Both the position numbers and the translations under genes were made by a program. Below, piece after piece: positions 4,700 to 50,654 of a DNA stretch of 64,000 bases. Every line of letters starts with the position of its first letter. The stretch's first letter is position 1. Origin of the DNA: an uncultured Gammaproteobacteria bacterium (GTDB lineage: Bacteria > Patescibacteriota > Microgenomatia > Daviesbacterales > UBA10151); the NCBI GenBank assembly GCA_964405655.1, contig CAYOOO010000002.1, forward strand, positions 2,022 through 66,021, given 5' to 3'. The notes under the pieces are model-generated. The model was not told the DNA's origin and ran no database searches. It worked only from the letters and a program-made list of their open reading frames with translations.

Positions 4700-5317
4700 T
4701 TGCAAACATTAACTAAACGAGTATATTCTGAGTTTGTGGAATCTCTTAATGGAGTTGTGGAAAAATACAAATACCCAATAATCTTAAGTTTTATTGGGTT
4801 AGTTTTAATCATTGGGGGTATTTTTTCTTCAGGCATTATCAAGGGTAACAAAGCTTTCCCTAAAGAGAGTCTGGTAGATATCAAACCAGCTAGTCAAGTC
4901 AAAGTGGATCTTTCTGGGGCTGTCAAAAAACCAGCTGTTTATAGTCTAAATGTTAATTCACGGGTTGAGGATGTTGTTAATCTGGCTGGTGGATTTTCAG
5001 AAAACGTTAATAAAGAATATATCTCAAAATACTTAAATCTATCCGCTAAATTGGCGGATGGACAGAAGATCTATATTCCCTTTGAAGGAGAGAATTTTGG
5101 AGCGACTGGTGGCGTAGCTGGTGTCAAAATCAACAGTAAAGTTGGTATCAATAGCTCGAGCCAGTCTCAGTTAGAAGATTTACCTGGAGTAGGTCCAGCT
5201 ACAGCTGAAAAAATAATCTCCGGACGCCCATATAGTGATATCGCTGAACTGACTAGCAAAAAGATAATTTCCAAAGCTGTTTTTGAAAAGATAAAAGAGT
5301 TAATTGATATAAATTAA
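4700..5317 (+). CDS. comEA: competence protein ComEA (SLBB plus helix-hairpin-helix)
   Basis: C-terminal LPGVGPATAEKII helix-hairpin-helix motif, a central SLBB-like segment and an N-terminal TM helix. Confidence 0.8.
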   Translation: MQTLTKRVYSEFVESLNGVVEKYKYPIILSFIGLVLIIGGIFSSGIIKGNKAFPKESLVDIKPASQVKVDLSGAVKKPAVYSLNVNSRVEDVVNLAGGFSENVNKEYISKYLNLSAKLADGQKIYIPFEGENFGATGGVAGVKINSKVGINSSSQSQLEDLPGVGPATAEKIISGRPYSDIAELTSKKIISKAVFEKIKELIDIN

Positions 5318-5319
5318 TC

Positions 5320-6360
5320 TTGTTTACCAGATATTTTCTACTAATTCTACTTTTTCTGTTGATTTTTTTCTGGCGAATAGAACAGATTGGAGGTTTAGAA
5401 AAAGGTGTTAGTGACCCTGAAATCGAGAAGATATCTGCTCTCTTTCAGCCTGCCCAGATCTATTTAGCTCAACAGCCTCAGCTTATTCTTGATCAACCTC
5501 AAGCTGGATTGCTCTCGGGAATGGTTTTAGGGGTAAAGAGTTTAATCCCATCTGATTTAACCAAAGCTCTTCGTAGAACTTCAACAATTCATATTGTGGT
5601 AGTTTCAGGTCAAAACTTGACTATGCTAGCAGGATTAATTTTGAACTTAGCTCCCTTACTGGGTAGAAGAAAGGTAATAGTTATTGGCTTACTAGCAGTT
5701 TTAGTTTATGCACTAATTAGTGGTTTACAAGTCCCGGTTATTAGAGCAGCAATTATGGTTACTTTTGCCTCACTGGCTAAGCTTCTGGGCAGGGAAGAGG
5801 ATTCCATCTTAGTCTTGCTTTTGACAGCCTCTATTATGCTAATTTATAATCCTAATTGGCTCCTGTCTGTATCTTTTCAGCTTTCGTTCTTAGCAACAAT
5901 CGGGGTAGTAATCTTAGCCCCTGAGATTATAAATAGATTTGGCTTTATCCCTAATTTAATCAAACAAGATTTGGCAGTTTCTTTGGCTGCTCAAATCATG
6001 ACTCTGCCAGTCATAGCATTCCAATTCCATCAAATCAGCTTAGTTGGTATACTAACTAATAGTTTGATATTGTTTACTATACCAATTATTATGGTAAGTG
6101 GTAGCGTGGCAATTTTTGTTTCCCTGATTAATCTAACTTTAGGTCAACTATTGACAGTTATCCCAGCGATCTTCCTAACTTATTTTATTTATATCGTTGA
6201 ACTTTTCAATACTAAATGGGCAAGTATCTATATGGGAAAAATAAGCTGGCTAGTTTGGCTAGGTTATTATATCCTAATTCTGGCTACTTTTATCTTTTTA
6301 AAACAAATAAACGGTAGAAAAAAATTGGATCCAGGACAAAATTTTATGGGTAAATTTTGA
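5320..6360 (+). CDS. comEC: ComEC/Rec2-family membrane protein (competence domain only)
   Basis: Polytopic membrane protein. Segment GMVLGVKSLIPSDLTKALRRTSTIHIVVVSGQNLTMLAG is typical of the ComEC competence domain. No beta-lactamase domain. TTG start. Confidence 0.65.
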   Translation: MFTRYFLLILLFLLIFFWRIEQIGGLEKGVSDPEIEKISALFQPAQIYLAQQPQLILDQPQAGLLSGMVLGVKSLIPSDLTKALRRTSTIHIVVVSGQNLTMLAGLILNLAPLLGRRKVIVIGLLAVLVYALISGLQVPVIRAAIMVTFASLAKLLGREEDSILVLLLTASIMLIYNPNWLLSVSFQLSFLATIGVVILAPEIINRFGFIPNLIKQDLAVSLAAQIMTLPVIAFQFHQISLVGILTNSLILFTIPIIMVSGSVAIFVSLINLTLGQLLTVIPAIFLTYFIYIVELFNTKWASIYMGKISWLVWLGYYILILATFIFLKQINGRKKLDPGQNFMGKF

Positions 6361-18963: not shown

Positions 18964-19473
18964 ATGGTCACAACAATTACTTCTAGACAACTCAAAGATG
19001 TCTTAATGGATTCCAAGCAGCCTGGCATTAAAGAATCATACTTTTATATTGAATCTCCCAATAATGAAAGTAATTTAACGGTTTTATCTCCAGGTAAAAA
19101 TGGTAATGAATTTAATAAAACACTAGGCTTTTTCCACAGGTTTCCTGGTGTATTGATCTACCGCTGTCTTTATGGTCAAGGAATTATTGTTATACAAAAA
19201 AATGATTCAGATGGAGAAGCTAAGGAGTTTAGGGTGGTTGGACTAAGAAGTGGGGTTGAAGTAGAGGTGCCATCAGGATATGGTCACACCATTATTAATA
19301 TTGGAAAGAACTTTTTAGTAACAATAGATAATGCTCCTAAAGATAGCAAATACCGGGATTACGAAACAGTTAAAAATAAAAAGGGTTTGGTCTACTATAT
19401 TATTGATAAAAAGGGAGATGTAGGATTTGATTCAAACCCTAATTATTCATTTCATCCCCAGATAACAACCTAA
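18964..19473 (+). CDS. hypothetical protein, possibly cupin-fold
   Basis: 169 aa with a beta-rich segment (VEVEVPSGYGHTIIN). Weak call. Confidence 0.35.
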   Translation: MVTTITSRQLKDVLMDSKQPGIKESYFYIESPNNESNLTVLSPGKNGNEFNKTLGFFHRFPGVLIYRCLYGQGIIVIQKNDSDGEAKEFRVVGLRSGVEVEVPSGYGHTIINIGKNFLVTIDNAPKDSKYRDYETVKNKKGLVYYIIDKKGDVGFDSNPNYSFHPQITT

Positions 19474-19531
19474 TCTAGATAAGTTAGCAGAAGTATTGAC
19501 TTAATTGCTAAAAGTTCGCAAGAAAAATACC

Positions 19532-19738
19532 TTAAACAGTCTTTTGGGTTATACCCAAAAGCCATAAAACAGCTTCCTTCTTATAACGCCTATCTCCTCT
19601 AGAATTAATCCTAATTGCCGGGAGCTTGCCTCTTTTTCCCCATCTTTTGATTGTGAGGGGAGAAACTCTAAGTACTTCTGCAACTTCTTTAACTGTTAAT
19701 AGATCAGGGAGATTCTCTAAGGAGATTTTGTCAGCCAT
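19532..19738 (-). CDS. excisionase-family helix-turn-helix DNA-binding protein
   Basis: 68 aa. LTVKEVAEVLRVSPLTIKRW matches the Xis/MerR-like HTH_17 pattern. Confidence 0.6.
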   Translation of the reverse strand: MADKISLENLPDLLTVKEVAEVLRVSPLTIKRWGKRGKLPAIRINSRGDRRYKKEAVLWLLGITQKTV

Positions 19739-19785
19739 ACTTACTCTTTGTATATCATAAAGATTCAGAGAGTGTCAAGATATCA

Positions 19786-20011
19786 ATTAGGCTTTAATTA
19801 GTCTATAGATTAAGGCGTTAAGTGCCCAATTAGAGGCTGAATCAAGATCATCTTTCCAGATGTAATCAGATATTTCATCTTTACTGATGGCTTTACCTAG
19901 ATTCTTTTTAACGAGTCTAAGTAACTTAGCCTCTTTAGCTGGTATGTTTAACTTAATATATGATTTGATATATTCTTCGCTATCCTTAGGACAACAAATC
20001 GCTCCAGCGAC
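19786..20011 (-). pseudogene. remnant of an OmpR/PhoB-type winged-helix (trans_reg_C) domain; no start codon
   Basis: Minus-strand frame reads ... IPAKEAKLLRLVKKNLGKAISKDEISDYIWKDD ... ALNALIYRLIKA*. This is the classic LT-KE-LL ... G-vS ... I ... VWG motif. The frame is bounded upstream by TGA and has no ATG/GTG/TTG, so the ORF track did not report it. Confidence 0.45.
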
Positions 20012-20052
20012 TCATTGTACTAATATTAGAAAGGTATTATATTAAATCTAGG

Positions 20053-20607
20053 ATGGTTAAGGGTAAAGTTAAGACTAAAGATGTACTGAAAATTATTGGT
20101 GTTGGTGGATTAGTAGTGGCTTCAATTATTATGCCTAATTTACCTATGGCTTTGATGAAAGTTCAGAAAGCTTGGAAAAATATTAAAAAAGAGGATTTAG
20201 GCAGAATTCTAAAAAGATTAGAAAGACAACAAGTGATCTCTATCAGGGAAAAAGGAGATATGATAGCAGTAGAGATTACTGAAAAAGGCAAACGCAGGTT
20301 ACTGGAGTATGATTTCGAAGGTATCGAGATTAAAAACAAAAAAAGAGACGGAAGGTTTAGACTAGTTGTATTTGATATTCCTGAGAATAAGAAAAATGCC
20401 AGGGATATGTTTAGAAGGAAGCTTATTCAGCTTGGATTTATCAAATTACAAGAAAGTGTGTTTGCATCTGCATACCCTTGTAAAAAAGAGATAGATTTTC
20501 TCTGCCACTACCTGGAGATTTCAGATTATGTAACTATCGCTTCAGTAGATAAAATAGAACGAGGGGAGCAGCTAGTATTTAAAGAATATTTTTATCATGA
20601 CAATTAA
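20053..20607 (+). CDS. membrane-anchored winged-helix protein fused to a Cas2/VapD-like domain (orphan)
   Basis: N-terminal hydrophobic segment (IIGVGGLVVASIIMPNLPMALM), then a wHTH-like segment (ILKRLERQQVISIREKGDMIAVEITEKGKRRL). The C-terminal ~85 aa (RFRLVVFDIPENKKNARDMFRRKLIQLGFIKLQESVFAS ... DYVTIASVD) match the Cas2 core pattern (VLVxYDI ... RR ... G-R-Q-SVFEC). Confidence 0.5.
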   Translation: MVKGKVKTKDVLKIIGVGGLVVASIIMPNLPMALMKVQKAWKNIKKEDLGRILKRLERQQVISIREKGDMIAVEITEKGKRRLLEYDFEGIEIKNKKRDGRFRLVVFDIPENKKNARDMFRRKLIQLGFIKLQESVFASAYPCKKEIDFLCHYLEISDYVTIASVDKIERGEQLVFKEYFYHDN

Positions 20608-20752
20608 TCGCGGCCGCGACTGAATGTACTGAAAATTATTAGTGGAATTCATTTTATATAAGATTGCAGCTTTGGAGGATCCAACTCTTTTTTCTGTATC
20701 ACACCTGCAATTTGGGGCGGAGATAACTTTGACAGGACTCAAAAAGAAAAAA

Positions 20753-20787
20753 AGAGCTACTGAATAATACCCAATAGCTCTTTTTTA
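20753..20787. terminator. bidirectional intrinsic terminator between the convergent Cas2-like gene and rplL
   Basis: Hairpin agagcta ... tagctct flanked by an A-run (20741-20752) and a T-run (20781-20786). Confidence 0.6.
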
Positions 20788-20805
20788 ATTCAAAGGAATT
20801 GAAAT

Positions 20806-21429
20806 TTACTGTAACTCAACGGTAGCTCCAGCTGCAGTCAGCTTGGTTTTTGCTTCTTCTGCGGTTTGCTTGTTAACACCCTCCATAACTGGTTTAGGTG
20901 CTGATTCTACTAGGTCTTTTGCTTCTTTTAAGCCTAAAGTCGGAACTAATTCTCTAACTGCTTTAATAGCTCCAATCTTGTTTGCTCCTGCTGAAGCTAA
21001 AATTACATTAAAGGTAGTTTGTTCACTAGCAGCTTCTTCAGCTCCTCCAGCTTGCCCTGCACCGACTGGTGCGGCGGCGACTGGTGCTTGAGCTGTAACA
21101 CCAAACCTATCTTCAAGCGCATGGACTAAATCTGCTAGCTCTAAAACTGACAGTTTTTCAATCTGCTCTATGATTTTTTCTAATTCCTTTGAGATAGGTT
21201 TTACAGCTTTTTTCTGGGGAGCCGGCTCGTCGGTGGTCGAAGCACCGCTCGGCTGACTAGACTTTGGTTCTGGAGTAGTTTCCTTAGCCTCGCTACGGGT
21301 TTGTTGAGAGTCGGAGTCAGTTAAATTTCCTTCTTCTGGAACACTCTCAACTGCACCAGTTGCTTCTGACTCACTCGACTTCGCCGTCTCTTTTTGTTTT
21401 TGATCTTGATCGTCTGCCAATCTAAACAC
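20806..21429 (-). CDS. rplL: 50S ribosomal protein L7/L12 with an ~80-aa acidic N-terminal extension
   Basis: Canonical L7/L12 from [24 protein letters not shown] ... onward. The GTG start overlaps the rplJ stop (GTGTTTAG). The extension is S/T/E/P-rich. Confidence 0.85.
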
Positions 21430-21943
21430 CCCCTCTCATTACTCGAATTTGATCTAGCGCGTATACTAAATTTCTTAAATTAGCCTGTAATACTCCAACT
21501 ATGCCGTAAAGTGGTGCACCTAAGGATCCAACAATGTTAGCTCTTAACTCCTCTTTTGATGGTAGGGAAGCAAGTTTTTGGACTATCACATTATCGATTA
21601 ACTCACCATTAAAGATTCCTAACTTGACTGATCCAATTTGAGCATCTTTGATAGCTTTAGTTAATATTTTGATAGGGGTTATTTCATCTTCATAAGAAAA
21701 TAGGGTTGCAATGGGACCCTGGTAGTTTGTAGGGGGTAGTTTGTAGGGGGTAGAGGCTAGTTTAAGCAGACTGTTTTTGGTAATAGTAAACTCTGCTCCA
21801 ACTTCTCTCAGCTTGCTTCTGAGGTCTGATAATTGAGACATGGTTAAACCTTTATAGTCTACAAAAACCACTGACTTGGCCCTGTCAAGCTTATCAGTTA
21901 AACCTTTGACTATTTGTTCTTTTTGCGCTCTGGTTTTAGGCAT
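21422..21943 (-). CDS. rplJ: 50S ribosomal protein L10
   Basis: [19 protein letters not shown] ... matches L10. Start set at the ATG that follows the GAAGGAG ribosome-binding site. The track ORF extends 14 codons further upstream. Confidence 0.85.
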
Positions 21944-21975
21944 AAAAAAACTCCTTCTTCGAGGAGTTTGAGTAG
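21944..21975 (-). promoter_or_regulatory. rplJ leader hairpin that sequesters the ribosome-binding site, followed by a U-run (L10-leader-like)
   Basis: Minus-strand RNA reads AAACTCCTCGAAGAAGGAGTTTTTTTATG. The stem CTCCT/AGGAG contains the SD, and 7 U precede the start codon. Confidence 0.4.
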
Positions 21976-22128
21976 TATGTATCAAGTATTATGTATTAAG
22001 GGATTTTTGTTTTCCCATAATACTTACTACTTATCCCTTGATACTAATTTTCAACGCCTCGGTGGGATTTACCAATTCCTTGAACCCACTTTCTTAAGCT
22101 TTTAAAATTCTAATCTAGTTGATACAAT

Positions 22129-22467
22129 TTGTCAATGGCAACACTCATCATTACTAAAAAAGCAACTAAAGATCAGATTAAAAAGATGTCATATGAGTAT
22201 GGAAGTTATATTAAAGTAGTAGTAGATATTGAAAAGAGTATATTAGCAGGCGGAGCAGCCATGCATTATGATGAGGAGAGACTATTATTAGAATATGGTT
22301 CAAAACAGCAGAACCTTTGGGGTGGAGGAATAGATTTAGATACAGGTTCAATAGATTATAATTCCATGATTAATTTACGTCCTAATCAAAACAACCCTAG
22401 TAGAGAAATCGTCTCTTTAGAAATTAGAGAGAAGTTTGATAAAATTGTCAAGAGATTGCTAATATGA
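22129..22467 (+). CDS. hypothetical protein (112 aa)
   Basis: ORF whose stop overlaps the next start (ATGA). Conserved-looking core YIKVVVDIEKSILAGG ... NLWGGGIDL. Confidence 0.5.
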   Translation: MSMATLIITKKATKDQIKKMSYEYGSYIKVVVDIEKSILAGGAAMHYDEERLLLEYGSKQQNLWGGGIDLDTGSIDYNSMINLRPNQNNPSREIVSLEIREKFDKIVKRLLI

Positions 22468-22811
22468 AAAATATCCAGGTTACAACTAGTCGCTCCAGCG
22501 ACTCATTGTCCCCAGCTCAGCTTCAAATTTTAAATATCTCGGTTAATCTGGCGAGAATAGGTAACTGGGTGGCTGATTCTTATGAACAGAAAAAAGAATT
22601 GATAAATAAGTTTATTGAACAAACTGCTCAGATGATCTCTGATTTAGATAGTCAAAATAGCTCAAAAGAGTTCAAAACTATCTTAAGTAAGTTTAAGACT
22701 GAGTTTTATAAGCTCAAGGAAGAGCCTATCGATAAAACAAACAAACCTATTTGGGCAGAAAAAGCTTTAACGTGGGCTAATATCTTGCAACATAGAGCTA
22801 AACTAGCCTAA
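22464..22811 (+). CDS. hypothetical protein (115 aa)
   Basis: ORF coupled to the previous one. Its 5' end carries a copy of the locus-specific inverted-repeat motif, so the true start could be internal. Confidence 0.45.
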   Translation: MKNIQVTTSRSSDSLSPAQLQILNISVNLARIGNWVADSYEQKKELINKFIEQTAQMISDLDSQNSSKEFKTILSKFKTEFYKLKEEPIDKTNKPIWAEKALTWANILQHRAKLA

Positions 22812-23665
22812 AACTTAGGTACCCAGATCCAATAACCACTGCCGCCTGAGGCAGGTGGATCGCCTTCAGATCCGGTATTGGCAGGAACCTTGAGCTCAGC
22901 AGATTTGCTGGCAGGTGGAGTGGGTGAATACCAAGTACCAGAAGTTCCTGTTTTGCCCAGATTTTTGATTATAAAGCCAATATCAAAGCTGTTGATGGAG
23001 TTATCTAAGTTAAAATCAATTAATGGGTTCCATTTTTTTGAGGTTGGATTTGCTCCTAAAGCGCTTAGAGTAATATTGTAATCTAGGGTATTAATAGTAT
23101 TGTCCTCATTTAAGTCACCAGTTAGCAAATTAAGAGTATTTAAATCATTCACAGAGGGCTTAACAGTAAAGGCTGAGGCTGTGGCTATCTGCACACTACC
23201 TTTAAGGTAAGCTGTATAGGTTTGACTTTGAGTTAAACCTGCTAGAGACAGATTGGAGTACTCTCCTGAATCAGGTACATTAACAGTAAAAGAGAGAAGG
23301 TATTGAGGATTAGTAATGGGTTGTCCTTGGGCAATTCCTACGAATAACTTAGTAGCCTGTTTGTTTTTGGGTCTTCCTTCGAGGTTAATCTTAAACTTTA
23401 AGGTAGGTCCAAAGCTAATTTCAGCTGAGGAGCTAGCCAGAGAGGAAGATCCATCGCTACCGCCAGACTCTTTAAGTAAACTTTTTTTTAACTCATCAAT
23501 TGGGTTGGTTTTAGGAACTTCTTTAGGGGAGGTTTGAGGGAAGATACTTGTTGTTTTAGCTGCATTTTTTTGATTGATTCTTTTAGAGAGGATAAATGAG
23601 CCTGATGGGATCAGGATGATTAAAACTGCGATGACTATTAAGATTATCTTCTCTTTACCGCGCAT
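22808..23665 (-). CDS. secreted protein with dockerin-like calcium-binding repeats
   Basis: N-terminal signal/TM segment. C-terminus GDLNEDNTINTLDYN ... DFNLDNSINSFDIG fits the dockerin type I repeat pattern. Confidence 0.6.
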   Translation of the reverse strand: MRGKEKIILIVIAVLIILIPSGSFILSKRINQKNAAKTTSIFPQTSPKEVPKTNPIDELKKSLLKESGGSDGSSSLASSSAEISFGPTLKFKINLEGRPKNKQATKLFVGIAQGQPITNPQYLLSFTVNVPDSGEYSNLSLAGLTQSQTYTAYLKGSVQIATASAFTVKPSVNDLNTLNLLTGDLNEDNTINTLDYNITLSALGANPTSKKWNPLIDFNLDNSINSFDIGFIIKNLGKTGTSGTWYSPTPPASKSAELKVPANTGSEGDPPASGGSGYWIWVPKF

Positions 23666-23732
23666 TTTCCCTAACTTTACTATACTATGGAAAAGTTAAA
23701 AGTAAAAAGTGTAAAGTAAATTAAGTAGCAAA

Positions 23733-24788
23733 ATGAACTCTCTCCCCGCTCTAAAGAACGTGGTTTTGAGTTCTTGTCTAACAATGAGAGTACTTTCTTT
23801 AAAGAATCTAGTTAGGATTTTAATAAACAGCCTGATTGGTTTAATTTTAATCCTGATATGGTTGAAGCTGGTTAACCTTCAAGAAGTTTTAGACAAGATT
23901 TCACAAGTAAATCTCCTCTTTACCATACCTTTTATTATTCTATTTGCACTATCTTTTAATCTAAGGGCAATCAGGCTTAAGATACTGCTTTCTTCAGAAC
24001 AAAGTATCCCTTTATCTAACATAGTCTATCTGACTTCTCTTTCCCAGCTTTTAAGCTTTTTGATACCCTTAAGACTAGGGGAGTTAGCTAAAGCAGTTTA
24101 TCTGGGGGCTGAATATAAAATTAAGTTTTCCAAAGCCTTAATTTGGATTCTTTTAGACAGGTTTATAGATTTTTGGACAGTCTTAATAATATCTTTAGTT
24201 TTACTTATCTTTCTGCCTACCAACCTGCCCGAAAACTTAAAGCTTAGTTTATCTTTCCTTATTGTTCTGTCCAGCTTAGGGGGGATCTTTTTAATATTCT
24301 TCCCTAAATATTCCAAAAAACTTGCTGAAATCTTTGCGTTACTCTTAGTATTTAAGCCTGTTAAAAGTCTATTTTTAAAAGTTAGCTTCCATATTATTGA
24401 TACAGCCAGTTTTTTAAATAGGGGGTTAGTAGGCAGTATAAAATTAATTCTGATTACAATCTTAGTACTTATTTCAGATGCGCTGGCTTGGTGGGTACTA
24501 TTTGTAATTGTGTTTAAGACCCAAGCTGGCCTTTTGCCAGTGCTTTTAGGTTCACTTCTAAATACTTTAACTTACCTAATTCCTGCTGCTCCTGGGTATA
24601 TAGGAAGCGCTGAGGCAGCAGGACTAGCTGTTTTCCATTTTGGTTTGGGTTTTGATAAAACTTTGGTTTCAGCCATAACTGTTTTAAACCATGCCTTAAC
24701 TGTTTTTTGTGTTCTTTTTTATGGGCTAATCTCCCTTTACCTTCTTAAATTTGATTTGAGCTTAGTTTGGAAGAAACTAAAAAGATAA
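23733..24788 (+). CDS. UPF0104/flippase-like (MprF-type) polytopic membrane protein
   Basis: Multiple TM helices. N-terminal region typical of lysylphosphatidylglycerol-synthase TM-domain family proteins. Confidence 0.55.
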   Translation: MNSLPALKNVVLSSCLTMRVLSLKNLVRILINSLIGLILILIWLKLVNLQEVLDKISQVNLLFTIPFIILFALSFNLRAIRLKILLSSEQSIPLSNIVYLTSLSQLLSFLIPLRLGELAKAVYLGAEYKIKFSKALIWILLDRFIDFWTVLIISLVLLIFLPTNLPENLKLSLSFLIVLSSLGGIFLIFFPKYSKKLAEIFALLLVFKPVKSLFLKVSFHIIDTASFLNRGLVGSIKLILITILVLISDALAWWVLFVIVFKTQAGLLPVLLGSLLNTLTYLIPAAPGYIGSAEAAGLAVFHFGLGFDKTLVSAITVLNHALTVFCVLFYGLISLYLLKFDLSLVWKKLKR

Positions 24789-25984
24789 AAAGTATTATGA
24801 ATCAGGAATCAGAGAATAACTCCAAAGCCAGTCATACAGCAAAAAAAGCTGATGAGTTTGATGAACCCAGATTACCAGGCGAGGAAGCAGCTGCTTTTTT
24901 AAGGCAGGAAGGTTTCAAGAAGTATCAGCAGGAGCTTCAAGCCCGAGGAGCCCGCCATAAAAAACATGGCGAGGTTGCTAGAGGAATTACCGAGGCGCTA
25001 CAGACTCAAGAAATTGAAGATTACGAACCTTGTCATTTATCTGATGAAGCTAGAGAGAGAATATTGGAAAGAATCAATCAGGCAGCCAGAAAAGAACCTA
25101 CTCTAGAAGCCCAGCAACTTTGGGCAGAGCTCTACCTTTTTCTAAGGGACCACTCTGCTTTTTTTACAGAGTTATCTCATGGGACAACTGCTGAACTTTT
25201 TGATCAGATACTGGTTGAAGGTATCAAACCATATGCAGTTTTAAAGGATCAGGGTAAACTAAGATTTGGTGAGGGAGCCAGAGCAAGCCGTAGAACAAAG
25301 GAAAGAGGGTTAAACCAGATTCCTGCAGGGGTCGGATTGGGCGGTTTAGGCACAGCTATTGCCTATGCGGAATTCACTGCAGATGCAAGACAAAACGAGA
25401 GGTTACAAAATATCCTATCTTTACACAACAGGGCGCTTAGAGATTCCAAGGATCCTGATCTTACTGAAGAATCCAGAAGATTTTACCAGGAACAGTTAGA
25501 GTTTTATAAAGAGGAGCTAAGAACCCCTCCTTCAAAAGGAAAATGGGAATTTCCGGTTGTGCTTGGTTTTGATCATTCTCAAGAAGTTAGCTCGTTTGAT
25601 AATCCTAAGATTGGTTGGGTTGTTGCCTGGCCAGAAGTATATAAAGGTGGGGAATTTAAAGTCCTTTCTTCTTTAAAAAAGGAGCGGGATTTTAAGTCTG
25701 AGGCTAGGCTTGATAGTGAGGTTTATTTACCTCCTGGGGATGAAGTACCATCTGAGGCAATAACTTTAATTGCTTGCCCAAAAGATAAAATGGAAATGGT
25801 AAGAAGAGTAGCAAGGGAGTTTAGAGGAGAAGATATATCTTTTATCTCACTTGAGGCTTTAGAACTTTTACCTAAAATAGGTGTTGATCGGGTTGACTCA
25901 GGCTACAAAACTGCCCGATCCACTACATCAGGAGTAGTAATCAGTGAAAGCCTCAGAAGAACTCGAGAAGACTTACTATATTGA
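24767..25984 (+). CDS. hypothetical protein (405 aa), Arg/Glu-rich
   Basis: Long ORF. Its end overlaps the rplA 3' end (convergent). Composition resembles other R-rich hypothetical proteins in the window. Confidence 0.5.
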   Translation: MEETKKIKSIMNQESENNSKASHTAKKADEFDEPRLPGEEAAAFLRQEGFKKYQQELQARGARHKKHGEVARGITEALQTQEIEDYEPCHLSDEARERILERINQAARKEPTLEAQQLWAELYLFLRDHSAFFTELSHGTTAELFDQILVEGIKPYAVLKDQGKLRFGEGARASRRTKERGLNQIPAGVGLGGLGTAIAYAEFTADARQNERLQNILSLHNRALRDSKDPDLTEESRRFYQEQLEFYKEELRTPPSKGKWEFPVVLGFDHSQEVSSFDNPKIGWVVAWPEVYKGGEFKVLSSLKKERDFKSEARLDSEVYLPPGDEVPSEAITLIACPKDKMEMVRRVAREFRGEDISFISLEALELLPKIGVDRVDSGYKTARSTTSGVVISESLRRTREDLLY

Positions 25985-26902
25985 GGATAGGTCGACTTTA
26001 ACTCCTGGACCCAAGGTAGGTGAGAGGGTGACTTTTTTTATTCTGGATTTTCCCAAGGTTATTAGTAAGGTTTTAACATTGGCAGTAAGTTCCTCAGAAG
26101 GCTGGTTAAGTTTTCCCAAAGCTAGATGAATAATTGGAGCTTTTGGCTCACTTTTATATTCTGTTTTACCACCTTGGAAATTTTCAACAGCTTTTTTCAA
26201 TCCGTCAGCTGACGGACTGGTAATAGTTCCATTCTTGGGATTTGGCATCAAACCTTTAGGTCCTAAGACTTTGGCAACTTTAGCCAGTTTACTCATCCAC
26301 AAAGGTGTAGTAATAACCATATCAAAGTCTATTTTACCCTTACTTATCTCCTCTAATGTTTCATCTGTACCAACAATATCTGCTCCAGACTCTTGGGCAT
26401 CTTTGCCAAAAGCCAGAATCCTTAACTTCTTTCCTTCTGAGTAAGGTAGAGAAACTAAACCTCTAAGACCAGTTGTTTGAGTATTGATATGAATTTCTAA
26501 AGAACCTGTGAACTTTGAGTAGGAAAGTTTTTTTGAGAGTTCAACAGCTTCAGGAATAGAGTAGTGCTTACCTCTTTCAAATTCCTCTACAGTTTTTTGG
26601 TATTTTTTAGAACGCTTTCTAGGCTGTCCTTGCTTTTTTTGTTTGGGCTTCTCGGAAGCAGTTTTAGTTGCTGATGGAGCTTGAGTAACCGAGCCGCCCA
26701 CTTTCTGCTGGGTATCTTCTATTTGAACTTCTTGATCCTTAGTAAGCTCAACTGCGCCAACTGCTTTATCTGATTCAGACTTTGCTTTCTTTAAAGCTTG
26801 ATCTCGCTCAATATTTGTTGCCAGAACTTTTTTAGGAGCTTTCTTTTTTGGTTCCTCAGCTGCTACTGAGTCATCAATTGTTTTAATCTTAGTTTTTCCC
26901 AT
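25976..26902 (-). CDS. rplA: 50S ribosomal protein L1 with an ~95-aa Lys/Glu-rich N-terminal extension
   Basis: Core from KKYQKTVEEFERGKHYSIPEAVELSKK ... to the end matches L1. The upstream in-frame extension is lysine-rich. Confidence 0.85.
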   Translation of the reverse strand: MGKTKIKTIDDSVAAEEPKKKAPKKVLATNIERDQALKKAKSESDKAVGAVELTKDQEVQIEDTQQKVGGSVTQAPSATKTASEKPKQKKQGQPRKRSKKYQKTVEEFERGKHYSIPEAVELSKKLSYSKFTGSLEIHINTQTTGLRGLVSLPYSEGKKLRILAFGKDAQESGADIVGTDETLEEISKGKIDFDMVITTPLWMSKLAKVAKVLGPKGLMPNPKNGTITSPSADGLKKAVENFQGGKTEYKSEPKAPIIHLALGKLNQPSEELTANVKTLLITLGKSRIKKVTLSPTLGPGVKVDLSSI

Positions 26903-26907
26903 GGTTT

Positions 26908-27336
26908 TTAACTTGAAACTTTAACCCCCATTGATCTGGCAGTGCCTTCTACTATTTTCATGGCAGCCTCCAAATCACTAGCGTTTAGATCCGGCATTTT
27001 AGCTTTGGCAATATCTTCTACCTGACTTTTGGATAAAGTTCCGGCACTTTCATGGCCGCTTTTTCCGGCTCCTTTTTCTACTCCTAAAGCCTTTTTAATC
27101 ATTTCAGCCACAGGTGGTTCTTTGGTAATAAAGCTAAATGTTCTATCTTCAAAAACTGTGATTACAACTGGTAGGATATTGCCTTGTTTTTCTTTAGTCT
27201 TCTCATTAAAGGCCTTAACAAAGTCCATTATAGGCAAGCCATGTTGACCCAAAGCTGGGCCAACAGGAGGAGCGGCAGTTGCTGTACCTGCAGGAATATT
27301 TAGTTTTATAAATGTTTTTACCTTTTTGTTTGCCAT
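26908..27336 (-). CDS. rplK: 50S ribosomal protein L11
   Basis: [33 protein letters not shown] is the L11 N-terminal signature. Confidence 0.92.
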
Positions 27337-48820: not shown

Positions 48821-49813
48821 ATGGCAGCAGAAATTGATTTACCAAATCCAGTTCTTTCGTCACATTTAGTACGCTCAAGGCAGTTAGGTTATCAGAGCTT
48901 GGCAGCCATGCCTGCAAGATTATCTCTACCTTTGTCTTTAGAAATCTTTGAGGATTTGAGCGACAGACGGAAAAAGGTGGGTCAACTCGAACGGGAAGTC
49001 ATAGTTCCAAATGAAGAGGTTTCAGAAAGAGTTGCCTTTTTAGGTCAATATGGACAATTACAACCTACCTTAAGGCAGGTACTTGATTTTTTAGTCAGAG
49101 AAACTATCCTTCTTCAACCTTTAACTCAACTTGGATTTGATAGCGTTGTTAAATACTTTTTTAATATTGATCAAGTAGCAGGCATACCAATTGCTTGGAA
49201 CCGTATGGATTTAAGATCAGATGGAGCATATAACCACGATGAGGGTATATTGATGAAATTCGGACCTCCCTTACCTGAGAGTTTACTGATTAGTCTGGCA
49301 AGGACAGGTTTAGTTGATAATAGCTCATTGATTCTGACTCATGAATTAGTTCATTCCAAGCAGGCAGCCAGAAAGAAGAAAAGAGGAGAGTGGTATAAAA
49401 AACATCGGGAGTTTATGGAAGTCCATGCTTATATCAGCGAAGGTAGAGCTCAATATTCTGATCGCGGCAGATTAAAAAAACACATTTTAACTGCAGTTGG
49501 GTATGACAAAAAGCTAGTCTATCCTGGGGCAGATCCTTTTAAGATAATGTTTGCTATTTGGGCAGTTGATAGATTGCTAGCTTTGGGTTTTACCCATAAT
49601 CAAATTTGCGATAGAGAAGCAAATCTTGGTAACTGGAATCAAAGAAGATCTGTTTATGGAAGATTCTCTAAAACAATAGCATCAAGCTCTAGGAGGTTTC
49701 AGTTATCCTCTACGAACTTAGATGGTTTAGTTGAAGGGAATGATTTGATTCTGCGTGAACATAGAAGCATAGTCAGGTTGATAGCTCAAGAAGAACTTAA
49801 AAAAGCTGCTTAA
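48821..49813 (+). CDS. hypothetical protein (330 aa) with an HExxH motif
   Basis: LILTHELVHS zincin-like motif. Otherwise unknown. Confidence 0.45.
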   Translation: MAAEIDLPNPVLSSHLVRSRQLGYQSLAAMPARLSLPLSLEIFEDLSDRRKKVGQLEREVIVPNEEVSERVAFLGQYGQLQPTLRQVLDFLVRETILLQPLTQLGFDSVVKYFFNIDQVAGIPIAWNRMDLRSDGAYNHDEGILMKFGPPLPESLLISLARTGLVDNSSLILTHELVHSKQAARKKKRGEWYKKHREFMEVHAYISEGRAQYSDRGRLKKHILTAVGYDKKLVYPGADPFKIMFAIWAVDRLLALGFTHNQICDREANLGNWNQRRSVYGRFSKTIASSSRRFQLSSTNLDGLVEGNDLILREHRSIVRLIAQEELKKAA

Positions 49814-50654
49814 TAGGGAAATTCTGGTAGCCGTTTAGGAACTCTTTTAAACTAACAGGAGCTTTTCCTTCTATTTGAACTTTTCCTTCTGGTAAAAGTT
49901 TAACTATTTTCCCATTCCATTTAGTCCAGGCAGTTGGCCAAGGGTAATAGGCTCTAATCATCCTATCTAACTTCTCAAGAAATTCCTGGAGGGCCTGCTT
50001 GCCGGTAGGCAAGTTATTAATCTCAAAATACCCATCCTCTTTAGTCACCTTATCACAAAAAGTTGCTATCGCATGATTTTGTGCAGTTGATTTGAGTTTT
50101 CCCAAGATATAATCTTTAATAATTTGAGTTATATCCTGACTTGCTTGTTGAAAAATTTTGTTACCCAAAGTTTGGTAATTATCACCGCTATCTATATCTA
50201 AACTCTTTTGATAAAGAATTGGTCCATGATCCATATTCTCATCTAGAAGCATATAACTCATCCCAGTTTCTTTTTCTCCTTCTAAAATTGCAGTTTGCAA
50301 AGGAGAAGGACCCCGAAACTTTGGAAGAAGTGATGGGTGAAGATTAATAGTTCCAAGTTTGGGAAGATCTAAAACTACTTGTGGAATGATCTTGCCATAA
50401 GCTGCTACTACAAACAGATCTGGCTCAAGTGATTTAATGCTGTCAGCAAAATCTTGATCTAATCTTTCAGGGCTGAAAATGGGTATATTTTGGTCTAAAA
50501 ACGCTTGTTTGACTGGTGTAGGAGCAAGCTTTAGATGACGTCCAGAAGGCTTATCAGGGACTGTAACTATTGCTTGCAAATTAAAGTTTTTTTGGAGTGC
50601 TTGAGCAACCGGAACAACAAAAGATCTTGAGCCAAAGAAAATAATTCTTGTCAT
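49797..50654 (-). CDS. fmt: methionyl-tRNA formyltransferase
   Basis: N-terminal formyltransferase domain (IIFFGS ... ; LHPSLLPKFRGPSP) and a C-terminal domain. Forms a def-fmt operon. Confidence 0.85.
   Translation of the reverse strand: MTRIIFFGSRSFVVPVAQALQKNFNLQAIVTVPDKPSGRHLKLAPTPVKQAFLDQNIPIFSPERLDQDFADSIKSLEPDLFVVAAYGKIIPQVVLDLPKLGTINLHPSLLPKFRGPSPLQTAILEGEKETGMSYMLLDENMDHGPILYQKSLDIDSGDNYQTLGNKIFQQASQDITQIIKDYILGKLKSTAQNHAIATFCDKVTKEDGYFEINNLPTGKQALQEFLEKLDRMIRAYYPWPTAWTKWNGKIVKLLPEGKVQIEGKAPVSLKEFLNGYQNFPIKQLF

Follow-up and report, generated by a model that had tools for sequence, protein, structure and literature searches.

Among the repressors that act by DNA looping, LacI (O1-O2), GalR (OE-OI) and DeoR have a primary operator at the promoter and a similar second one hundreds of base pairs away, in or after a coding region. 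In the REP/RAYT systems (repetitive extragenic palindromes and their associated tyrosine transposases; REPINs), a gene is flanked by imperfect palindromes of about 35 bp, and extra solo copies, homogeneous within a genome, occur in tens to hundreds. As for PaaX, the E. coli protein recognizes TGATTC-N27-GAATCA and, by keeping RNA polymerase away, represses Px, the promoter of its own gene (PMC9493321). The present work deals with a gene of a Patescibacteria genome (order Daviesbacterales), here named mini-PaaX, and with the 36-bp palindromes on its two sides; they lie in a stretch of 64,000 nucleotides (assembly GCA_964405655.1, contig CAYOOO010000002.1, positions 2,022 to 66,021), hereafter the window, whose numbering is used throughout and for which an earlier annotation from the letters alone (the sequence-only reading) was available. 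The analysis placed the window in contig JACOXF010000004.1 of GCA_016176395.1, a metagenome-derived Candidatus Daviesbacteria assembly.

The mini-PaaX gene stands between two copies of the palindrome, and the same pair accompanies the gene in its relatives. On the comparisons described below, these palindromes are probably the cognate operators of the mini-PaaX protein, the upstream copy being autoregulatory. The data suggest a predicted regulator family of Patescibacteria, very widespread, with a conserved layout in which the gene sits between two putative cognate operators. Patescibacteria (Candidate Phyla Radiation, CPR) have tiny genomes, very few recognizable regulators and almost no experimentally defined regulons; with a predicted operator, a predicted promoter and a conserved two-operator layout, an anonymous gene becomes a testable regulator.

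The mini-PaaX protein

The gene has the following position:

20053-20607, plus strand: mini-PaaX gene, 184 aa, a winged helix-turn-helix (wHTH) at the N-terminus and then a Cas2-like PaaX_M domain; its product is presumed to bind the palindromes

Regarding its domains, the protein matches Pfam PF20803 (PaaX_M) at residues 96-170 with E = 4.4e-19, and no match to PaaX_C was found in the sequence, which ends at residue 184; the label mini-PaaX was chosen because the protein has the wHTH and the Cas2-like dimerization domain without the C-terminal effector domain. It scores 30.5 bits against TIGR02277 (PaaX; cut-off 264.55), over profile positions 41-158 of 279, and 34.3 bits against TIGR01573 (cas2), which is above the cut-off of 24.5 but covers 40 of the 96 profile positions; the latter match is the reason why the NCBI pipeline names it "CRISPR-associated endonuclease Cas2".

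The AlphaFold model (predicted local distance difference test, pLDDT, of 74, with low confidence at residues 18-39 and 176-184) has E. coli PaaX as its best PDB match (8a39, 177 columns), followed by Cas2 structures, and it further matches the PaaX-like structures 3kfw and 3l09. The FDIP of the FDIPE motif aligns with the FDLP of the Cas2 structure 6jhz, and the beta1-alpha1-beta2 core bears the conserved aspartate; this Cas2-type residue, D108, is invariant across 39 sequences. The recognition helix, DLGRIIKRLEKQEMI, is almost invariant, in parallel with the invariant ACA/TGT and GC..GC positions of the palindrome.

With PaaX of E. coli and Pseudomonas, mini-PaaX shares the order of its domains, wHTH first and then PaaX_M, and the closest structure; in contrast, PaaX is roughly 300 aa long, and mini-PaaX is devoid of the PaaX_C effector-binding domain and of any linkage to paa genes, none of which occurs in the 12 annotated loci, where the neighbors are translation and housekeeping genes. 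With Cas2, it shares the fold core with its aspartate, the TIGR01573 match above cut-off and a place for Cas2 among the best fold matches; it differs in the partial coverage of that profile, in the wHTH fusion and in the distances between the three copies of the repeat in the window (609 and 1882 bp), which are not those of a CRISPR array. Mini-PaaX is not a CRISPR Cas2 in any operational sense, since the annotation of the 12 loci shows neither cas1 nor a CRISPR array. The mislabel is routine in this family and could inflate the counts of CRISPR components in CPR genomes.

The family counts 4,426 clusters (50% identity) at E <= 1e-3 and 2,186 at E <= 1e-10; it ranges across Microgenomates and Parcubacteria and is centered on Patescibacteria. 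A profile search of mini-PaaX found no Y1_Tnp (Y1/HUH) domain and no other transposase or recombinase domain; the Y1_Tnp genes in locus L019 and the remnant in L060 (L-numbers are labels of related loci) are open reading frames (ORFs) separate from mini-PaaX.

The palindromes of the window

Four sites of the family are found in the window; their scores, given below, were obtained with a position weight matrix trained solely on copies from other genomes:

19987-20022, plus strand: upstream palindrome (copy 1), TAGGACAACAAATCGC-TCCA-GCGACTCATTGTACTA, 32.7 bits, predicted autoregulatory operator
20596-20631, plus strand: downstream palindrome (copy 2), CATGACAATTAATCGC-GGCC-GCGACTGAATGTACTG, 21.4 bits
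22478-22513, plus strand: solo palindrome (copy 3), GGTTACAACTAGTCGC-TCCA-GCGACTCATTGTCCCC, 35.2 bits, codons 5-17 of ORF 22464-22811
50051-50086: fourth, divergent palindrome of the family type, TATCACAAAAAGTTGC-TATC-GCATGATTTTGTGCAG (equally CACAAAAAGTTGC-TATC-GCATGATTTTGTG), 13.7 bits, inside fmt (methionyl-tRNA formyltransferase gene; 49797-50654, minus strand)

The maximum score in the null set, made of 20 simulated windows, was 5.9 bits. The sequence-only reading had reported three copies of a motif of about 30 nt with the common core TCGC-N4-GCGACT-N-A-N-TGT, the third in the first codons of ORF 22464. The copies are there, all on the plus strand: the core has exactly three matches in 64 kb and 0 in 100 dinucleotide-preserving shuffles, and copy 3 does lie at the start of that frame. 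The length had been underestimated; the repeated 28-mers (19991-20018, 20600-20627 and 22482-22509) belong to a unit that is a 36-bp near-palindrome, with outer arms ACAA/TTGT(AA). Two more details of copy 2 need correction: the string quoted for it begins at 20601, not at 20600, and instead of following the stop codon of mini-PaaX, it overlaps it, its left arm containing the last codons and the TAA (20605-20607).

The bare TCGC-N4-GCGA occurs in the window at the same three places only (0.03 expected), and the pattern ACA-N7-GC-N4-GC-N7-TGT has four matches against 0.03 expected.

The palindrome pair in relatives

The genome scan used an 18-base version of the motif on one genome per species (185,579 species) and returned 13 loci, all from low-GC Daviesbacteria-like assemblies. 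All 13 extend to the dyad GGTTACAA-N4-TCGC-N4-GCGA-N4-TTGTAACC, and in three of them two copies are 618-648 bp apart with a mini-PaaX homologue in between. A protein search found 273 homologues at E < 1e-5, the best 120 of which, the query's own cluster aside, are 59-70% identical to the window protein.

Conservation of the dyad in relatives, which the sequence-only reading had made a test of its proposal, was borne out: the upstream copy is present in 28 of 28 distinct related Daviesbacteria loci, where it ends 24-114 nt before the ATG, and the downstream copy is intact in 24 of 28, at 591-687 bp from the upstream one. In the remaining four, the downstream copy is split by a central insert (L019 and L025), cut by the contig end (L030) or missing (L046); in this last locus, a tRNA gene follows mini-PaaX. 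In relatives, the copies bracket the homologous mini-PaaX gene, and neither inversion nor excision polymorphism was seen.

The family consensus is nnkkACAAnnannnCGC-TATA-GCGnnnnwTGTAAyn. Positions A5 C6 A7, G15 C16, G21 C22 and G31 T32 are invariant, T30 is found in 47 of 48 copies, the center reads TATA in most cases (each of its four bases is found in 42-47 of 48 copies), and the filler positions are variable. At 18 variable positions, the upstream and downstream copies agree at 10.3 within a locus and at 6.8 between loci (permutation p < 1e-4).

As for the genomic context, the bracketed gene occurs in the arrangements rseP(-DUF5667)-gene-(tRNA_bind)-proS, proS-gene-tig, SHMT-gene-folD and mreB-gene, between atpC and atpD and, in the window, between a Trans_reg_C ORF and the convergent rplL; the palindrome pair is present with the gene in all these neighborhoods. 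The rseP-proS-tig neighborhood was sought in the window as an "empty site", and those genes are not in it. In the atpC-atpD case (L023, 8310-11706), the ATP synthase operon is split, and the companions of mini-PaaX are a peptide deformylase gene, a carbonic-anhydrase-like gene and an AbiTii/DpnII-MboI gene.

Distant homologues, with 31-36% identity, are bracketed on both sides by palindromes of their own, different from that of the window, and so are members from Parcubacteria, Shapirobacteria and Levybacteria:

L053 (36% identity): TTTTGCAAAA...TGCGATAGCA...TTTTGCAAAA on both flanks
L055/L056 (31% identity): flanking palindromes around ATTTCGTACGAAAT
L058: flanking palindromes with ...CAAGTCATGACTTG...
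L059: flanking palindromes GACAC...GCCTACGCCT...GTGTC
L061, L062, L063: flanking dyads around TGCTATAGCA

As far as these comparisons reach, the palindrome sequence changes together with the lineage of the predicted regulator. A palindrome that differs with the protein lineage, and does so on both flanks, is what is expected for a cognate protein-DNA pair. A link between operator subtype and residues of the recognition helix was also sought; it proved uninformative because the helix is nearly invariant and the subtypes simply track the protein tree.

One Parcubacteria locus, L060, has a different appearance. Two different perfect palindromes, both centered on TGCTATAGCA, lie downstream of its mini-PaaX gene (5620-5760), no palindrome was seen within 250 nt upstream of it, and the gene is immediately preceded by the remnant of an IS200-like transposase and its hairpin (4750-5000).

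A scan of viral contigs with the family consensus gave four matches, none with arms of the family type or a homologous gene nearby, which were treated as unrelated. In the literature, whose coverage was incomplete, no paper was found that ties PaaX-like or Cas2-like proteins of Patescibacteria to flanking palindromes.

The upstream copy and the predicted promoter

The right arm of copy 1 coincides with the -35 box of a putative promoter:

20015-20043, plus strand: predicted sigma-70-type promoter of the mini-PaaX gene, from sequence geometry

The -35 box, TTGTAC (20015-20020), is followed by a 17-nt spacer and by the -10 box TATATT (20038-20043); from the end of this box to the ATG there are 9 nt. 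The same geometry, with the right arm TTGTAA (positions 29-34), 16-18 nt and then TAnnnT, recurs in 23 of 28 upstream copies, against 3 of 24 downstream copies and 3 of 28 when the opposite strand of the upstream copies is read; in 23 loci, the best spacer measures exactly 17 nt. The upstream palindrome is thus predicted to overlap the core promoter of the regulator's own gene, and from this geometry a protein bound to the dyad would cover promoter positions -63 to -28. In 16 loci, the predicted -10 box ends just 4-12 nt before the ATG; with the box so near the start codon, the mini-PaaX mRNA is predicted to be leaderless or to have a very short leader.

The copy at the 3′ end of the gene

In 15 of 23 loci, 27-30 nt separate the conserved ERGE motif from the start of the downstream copy, and the mini-PaaX ORF stops at the first stop codon met in the palindrome, be it at position 9/10 (nTAG, nTAA, TGA), at position 13 or at the central CTA-TAG at position 19; in some other loci, the stop codon precedes the palindrome. 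The C-terminal tail of the protein is modeled with low confidence in this part, and the ORF closes at the first stop codon that it encounters; the constraint on the downstream site is therefore one on the DNA and not on what it encodes.

Regarding the next gene, among the loci examined the next promoter-like site lies anywhere between 0 and 35 nt past the downstream copy, with a TTGACA box at 8 nt in some of them, and the gene is convergent in the window and in L023; for these two reasons, the downstream copy goes with the regulator gene and not with a promoter beyond it. Placement relative to the promoter of the next gene was rejected as a general rule on account of that variable distance.

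Three downstream copies carry an insert at the center of the dyad, in all cases of the form ATTAGA - small hairpin - TCGCAAGCTnTGCT:

L019, 10556-10626: center insert
L025, about 2905-2950: center insert
L051, about 380-445: center insert

The inserts are mutually related and end in ...CAAGCTnTGCT|TATAGC, and their hairpin stems differ by compensatory changes.

Solo copies

Sites away from the mini-PaaX gene are rare: two in the window (ORF22464 and fmt) and ten from the genome scan, and the protein-retrieved loci, within the 382 kb scanned in all, have no sites besides the gene-flanking copies. Those from the genome scan are:

L006: inside ileS
L007 and L012: inside ychF, at the orthologous position
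L008: inside a reverse-transcriptase-like ORF
L014: inside a glycosyltransferase gene
L009: between the RidA and GNAT genes
L011: between convergent purA and guaA
L013: between rpsJ and rplC
L016, 2124-2159: on the stop codon of purC, with 27/28 identity to window copy 2
L018: at the end of a leuA-like gene

The site of L016 shares with window copy 2 the rare GGCC center, which forms a NotI site, GCGGCCGC. No remnants of the mini-PaaX gene were found next to the solo copies. A role of the solo copies as promoters was considered and rejected, no -10 box being at the right distance on either strand.

The solo sites in ychF and ileS were also evaluated as clean in-frame insertions, an origin rejected because there is no length change relative to the homologues. 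In ychF, the protein is as long as its L008 orthologue and the motif overlies a conserved G-[FY]-x-N segment; in ileS, the product aligns without gaps to the IleRS structures 1ile and 8c8w of the PDB. The ychF site is identical at 36 of 36 positions in two species whose flanking codons differ, which suggests that selection acts on this site as DNA. Where the frame would read CTA-TAG as a stop, the centers of the solo copies are altered to TGTC, TATC or TACA.

Copy 3 is the only solo copy consistent with an insertion. Fifteen homologues of ORF22464 are without the segment, their N-termini being variable in length; removal of its 36 nt preserves the frame and leaves an N-terminus as short as that of the shortest homologue, P0154. 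Its right end reads TCCCC in place of the canonical TAACC, which eliminates an in-frame TAA. Copies 1 and 3 have 26 of 28 positions identical and the same rare, non-palindromic TCCA center, which makes copy 3 look like a recent DNA-level copy of copy 1; no similarity exists outside the 36 nt. A duplication had been proposed for these two copies from the peptides TTNRSSDSL and TTSRSSDSL. A coding duplication is not supported, since both peptides are translations of the shared 36-nt site. Copying seems to be the origin of at least some solo sites.

A second type of palindrome, GGTACCAnnnnnTCGCTATnGCGTAAAnnTGGTACC (GGTACCA...TCGCTATnGCG...TGGTACC), has the center of the main family and different outer arms. 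It was noted in L007 (3992-4027), L012 (1874-1909) and L016 (5737-5772), inside ychF, where 184 nt lie between it and the first palindrome, and in a purP-like ORF.

Proposed mode of action

That the dyads are operators of the wHTH-Cas2-like protein had already been put forward in the sequence-only reading, and much of it stands: the pair accompanies the gene, varies with its lineage and has a predicted -35 box in its upstream copy, from which we infer that the protein binds it. A mini-PaaX dimer would sit on the dyad, its two wHTH domains reading the ACA/TGT arms about 25 bp apart, as PaaX does with TGATTC-N27-GAATCA; binding would occlude the -35 box and repress the gene of mini-PaaX itself, as PaaX does at Px. 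The site at the 3′ end might be an auxiliary operator; it could cooperate with the upstream site in a DNA loop of about 600 bp, or it could separate the regulator gene from its housekeeping neighbors in the manner of a roadblock or insulator. The few solo sites could constitute a small regulon or a set of roadblocks, comprising ORF22464 and fmt in the window and, in relatives, ileS, ychF, the glycosyltransferase gene and the intergenic regions rpsJ|rplC, purA|guaA and at the purC end. If those in ileS, ychF, fmt and near the ribosomal protein genes are functional, mini-PaaX could regulate translation-related genes.

The likeness to PaaX extends to a long dyad with widely separated half-sites and to an operator that overlaps, by prediction in the present case, the regulator's own promoter. 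In contrast, the mini-PaaX operator, ACA-N7-GCTATAGC-N7-TGT with conserved center and arms, is unrelated in sequence to that of PaaX, and the mini-PaaX loci have as a constant trait a second putative operator on the stop codon of the regulator gene. Drawn from these predicted features, the analogy is close in logic, not in sequence. With LacI, GalR and DeoR, the system has in common the paired similar sites, 591-687 bp apart; it differs because the sites enclose the regulator's own gene and the distal one is fixed to the 3′ end of that gene, not to the regulated promoter.

Several observations weigh against cognate operators. Simple autorepression does not account for an operator conserved where the gene ends, the distance from this site to the next promoter is not conserved, and a rigid dimer operator should not tolerate the 27-34 nt inserted exactly at the dyad center of the three downstream copies in L019, L025 and L051. 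As for the solo sites, the -35/-10 geometry is absent from all of them on both strands, and several are inside ORFs or between convergent genes, not at promoters. The TCCA center shared by copies 1 and 3 is more in line with copy-paste than with independent evolution of binding sites. Finally, the filler positions vary between clades and the recognition helix does not, so that the similarity of the two copies within a locus may reflect copying or gene conversion, and not a co-evolution of specificity.

Alternative explanations

Some of these points find a place in a different explanation, unlikely in our judgment, in which the palindromes are the ends or the recognition hairpins of a small selfish or domesticated module, comparable to REP/RAYT or to the subterminal hairpins of IS200 type, and the Cas2-like protein copies or moves them, yielding the solo sites. 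The position of the gene between two palindromes, which recalls that of RAYT genes between REPs, fits with it, and so do the different placement of the unit in different genomes, with conserved operons split twice, and the invariance of the Cas2-type aspartate D108. Rare centers specific to a genome are common to solo and gene-flanking copies (TCCA in the window; in genome CAYSNN, TGGA in two solos and TGCA in one), copy 3 resembles an in-frame insertion of 36 nt, and the downstream copy of L019 with its insert forms one long hairpin (-28.5 kcal/mol, z = -3.4).

However, the copy number is very low, with four sites in 64 kb and only gene-flanking copies in the protein-retrieved loci; the ileS and ychF solos are not simple insertions, and the window copies fold weakly as single strands (-6.8 to -12.6 kcal/mol). 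The gene itself is apparently single-copy and mostly found in one neighborhood (rpsB-tsf-frr-rseP-...-proS-tig), which is consistent with vertical inheritance, the protein is without a Y1/HUH or other transposase or recombinase domain, and the -35/-10 geometry indicates an ordinary regulatory role for the upstream copy. Mini-PaaX is not a RAYT: the flanking palindromes, the solo copies and the homogeneity within a genome are shared features, but the Y1/HUH domain and the GTAG head are missing, the copies are a handful, the hairpins are weak and the upstream copy is a predicted promoter element.

A more specific form of this explanation is quite unlikely. In it, the Cas2-fold protein would recognize the palindrome, extruded or duplex, and by means of its retained Cas2-type active-site aspartate would promote the copying or patch conversion of the 36-bp unit at further sites, some of them within essential genes, where the unit would be in frame. 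If true, it would be a REP/RAYT-like system built on the Cas2 fold in place of the Y1 transposase.

Action at the RNA level, with the palindromes as transcript hairpins that stabilize the 3′ end, terminate transcription or are targeted by a Cas2-like RNase, is very improbable. The downstream copy would be transcribed as the 3′ end of the mini-PaaX mRNA, G-T pairs, tolerated in RNA, are frequent at positions 10/27 of the downstream copies (10 of 24), the center inserts of L019, L025 and L051 hold small hairpins with compensatory changes, and some Cas2 proteins are described as endoribonucleases in the names of their PDB entries. On the other hand, the upstream copy lies upstream of or within the predicted promoter, and so outside the mRNA, and in the upstream copies the arm positions 9-12/25-28 pair at chance level. 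The predicted hairpins are weak, no copy has a U-tract or a terminator-like site, and the palindromes are symmetric on both strands, TTGTAA arms included, as for recognition of duplex DNA. The fold z-scores of the copies range from -1.5 to -4.0. A scan of 19000-23500 against Rfam at a permissive threshold gave no match overlapping the copies, the only one nearby being a sub-threshold L10 leader.

Finally, the sites could serve another factor, as recombination or inversion sites, possibly of an excisionase-like helix-turn-helix protein, or as chromosome-organization sites of the parS, matS or Noc-binding type. The candidate protein is encoded near copy 1:

19532-19738, minus strand: HTH_17/excisionase-family gene

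Long conserved palindromes with a short center are reminiscent of recombinase core sites, some are inside ORFs, as parS and Noc-binding sites often are, and this gene lies about 250 bp upstream in the window, but the explanation is highly doubtful: the 12 annotated loci are free of integrase, invertase and ParB genes, the HTH_17 gene is confined to the genome of the window, the orientation of mini-PaaX is constant relative to rseP and proS with no inversion seen, and the palindrome changes with the mini-PaaX lineage across phyla, which points to mini-PaaX as its partner. Both roles that the sequence-only reading had offered beside the wHTH-Cas2-like operator are left without support on these grounds, the excisionase-family protein as binder because its gene is absent from all the other annotated loci with a palindrome pair, and the short recombination sites because there is no recombinase and no inversion or excision polymorphism. 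Overall, a mobile module or recombination sites are less likely than cognate operators of mini-PaaX.

Neighboring genes in the window

On the other side of copy 1 from mini-PaaX there is a second short reading frame:

19787-19999, minus strand: Trans_reg_C-only ORF, 70 aa, OmpR-type winged helix, with ATT as start in the public annotation

The left end of copy 1 overlaps the 5′ end of this ORF, which has no ATG, GTG or TTG start and no receiver domain, and which may be a gene remnant. Further neighbors are rplL, rplJ, a DUF5674 gene and the unannotated ORF 22464-22811 that contains copy 3.

The usual rplKA-rplJL ribosomal cluster is split here (20806-27336), with five unrelated genes between rplA and rplJ: those for DUF5674, ORF22464, a protein with a dockerin domain, a membrane protein of the LPG_synthase_TM type and a 405-aa ORF that matches nothing in Pfam. 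The rplL frame (20806-21429, minus strand) extends without a stop over 207 aa if read from a GTG at its overlap with the rplJ end, which would add a 78-aa acidic, Ser/Thr-rich extension at the N-terminus; annotations differ, giving 129 or 207 aa. Upstream of rplJ, at 21936-22116 (minus strand), is the stretch that matches the leader of ribosomal protein L10 below threshold (29.8 bits, gathering score 44), and a near-consensus promoter, TTGACA-17-TAGAAT, is close to it at 22135-22107. Inside rplJ, a short tandem duplication, GGTAGTTTGTAGGGG, is present in two copies (21717-21750).

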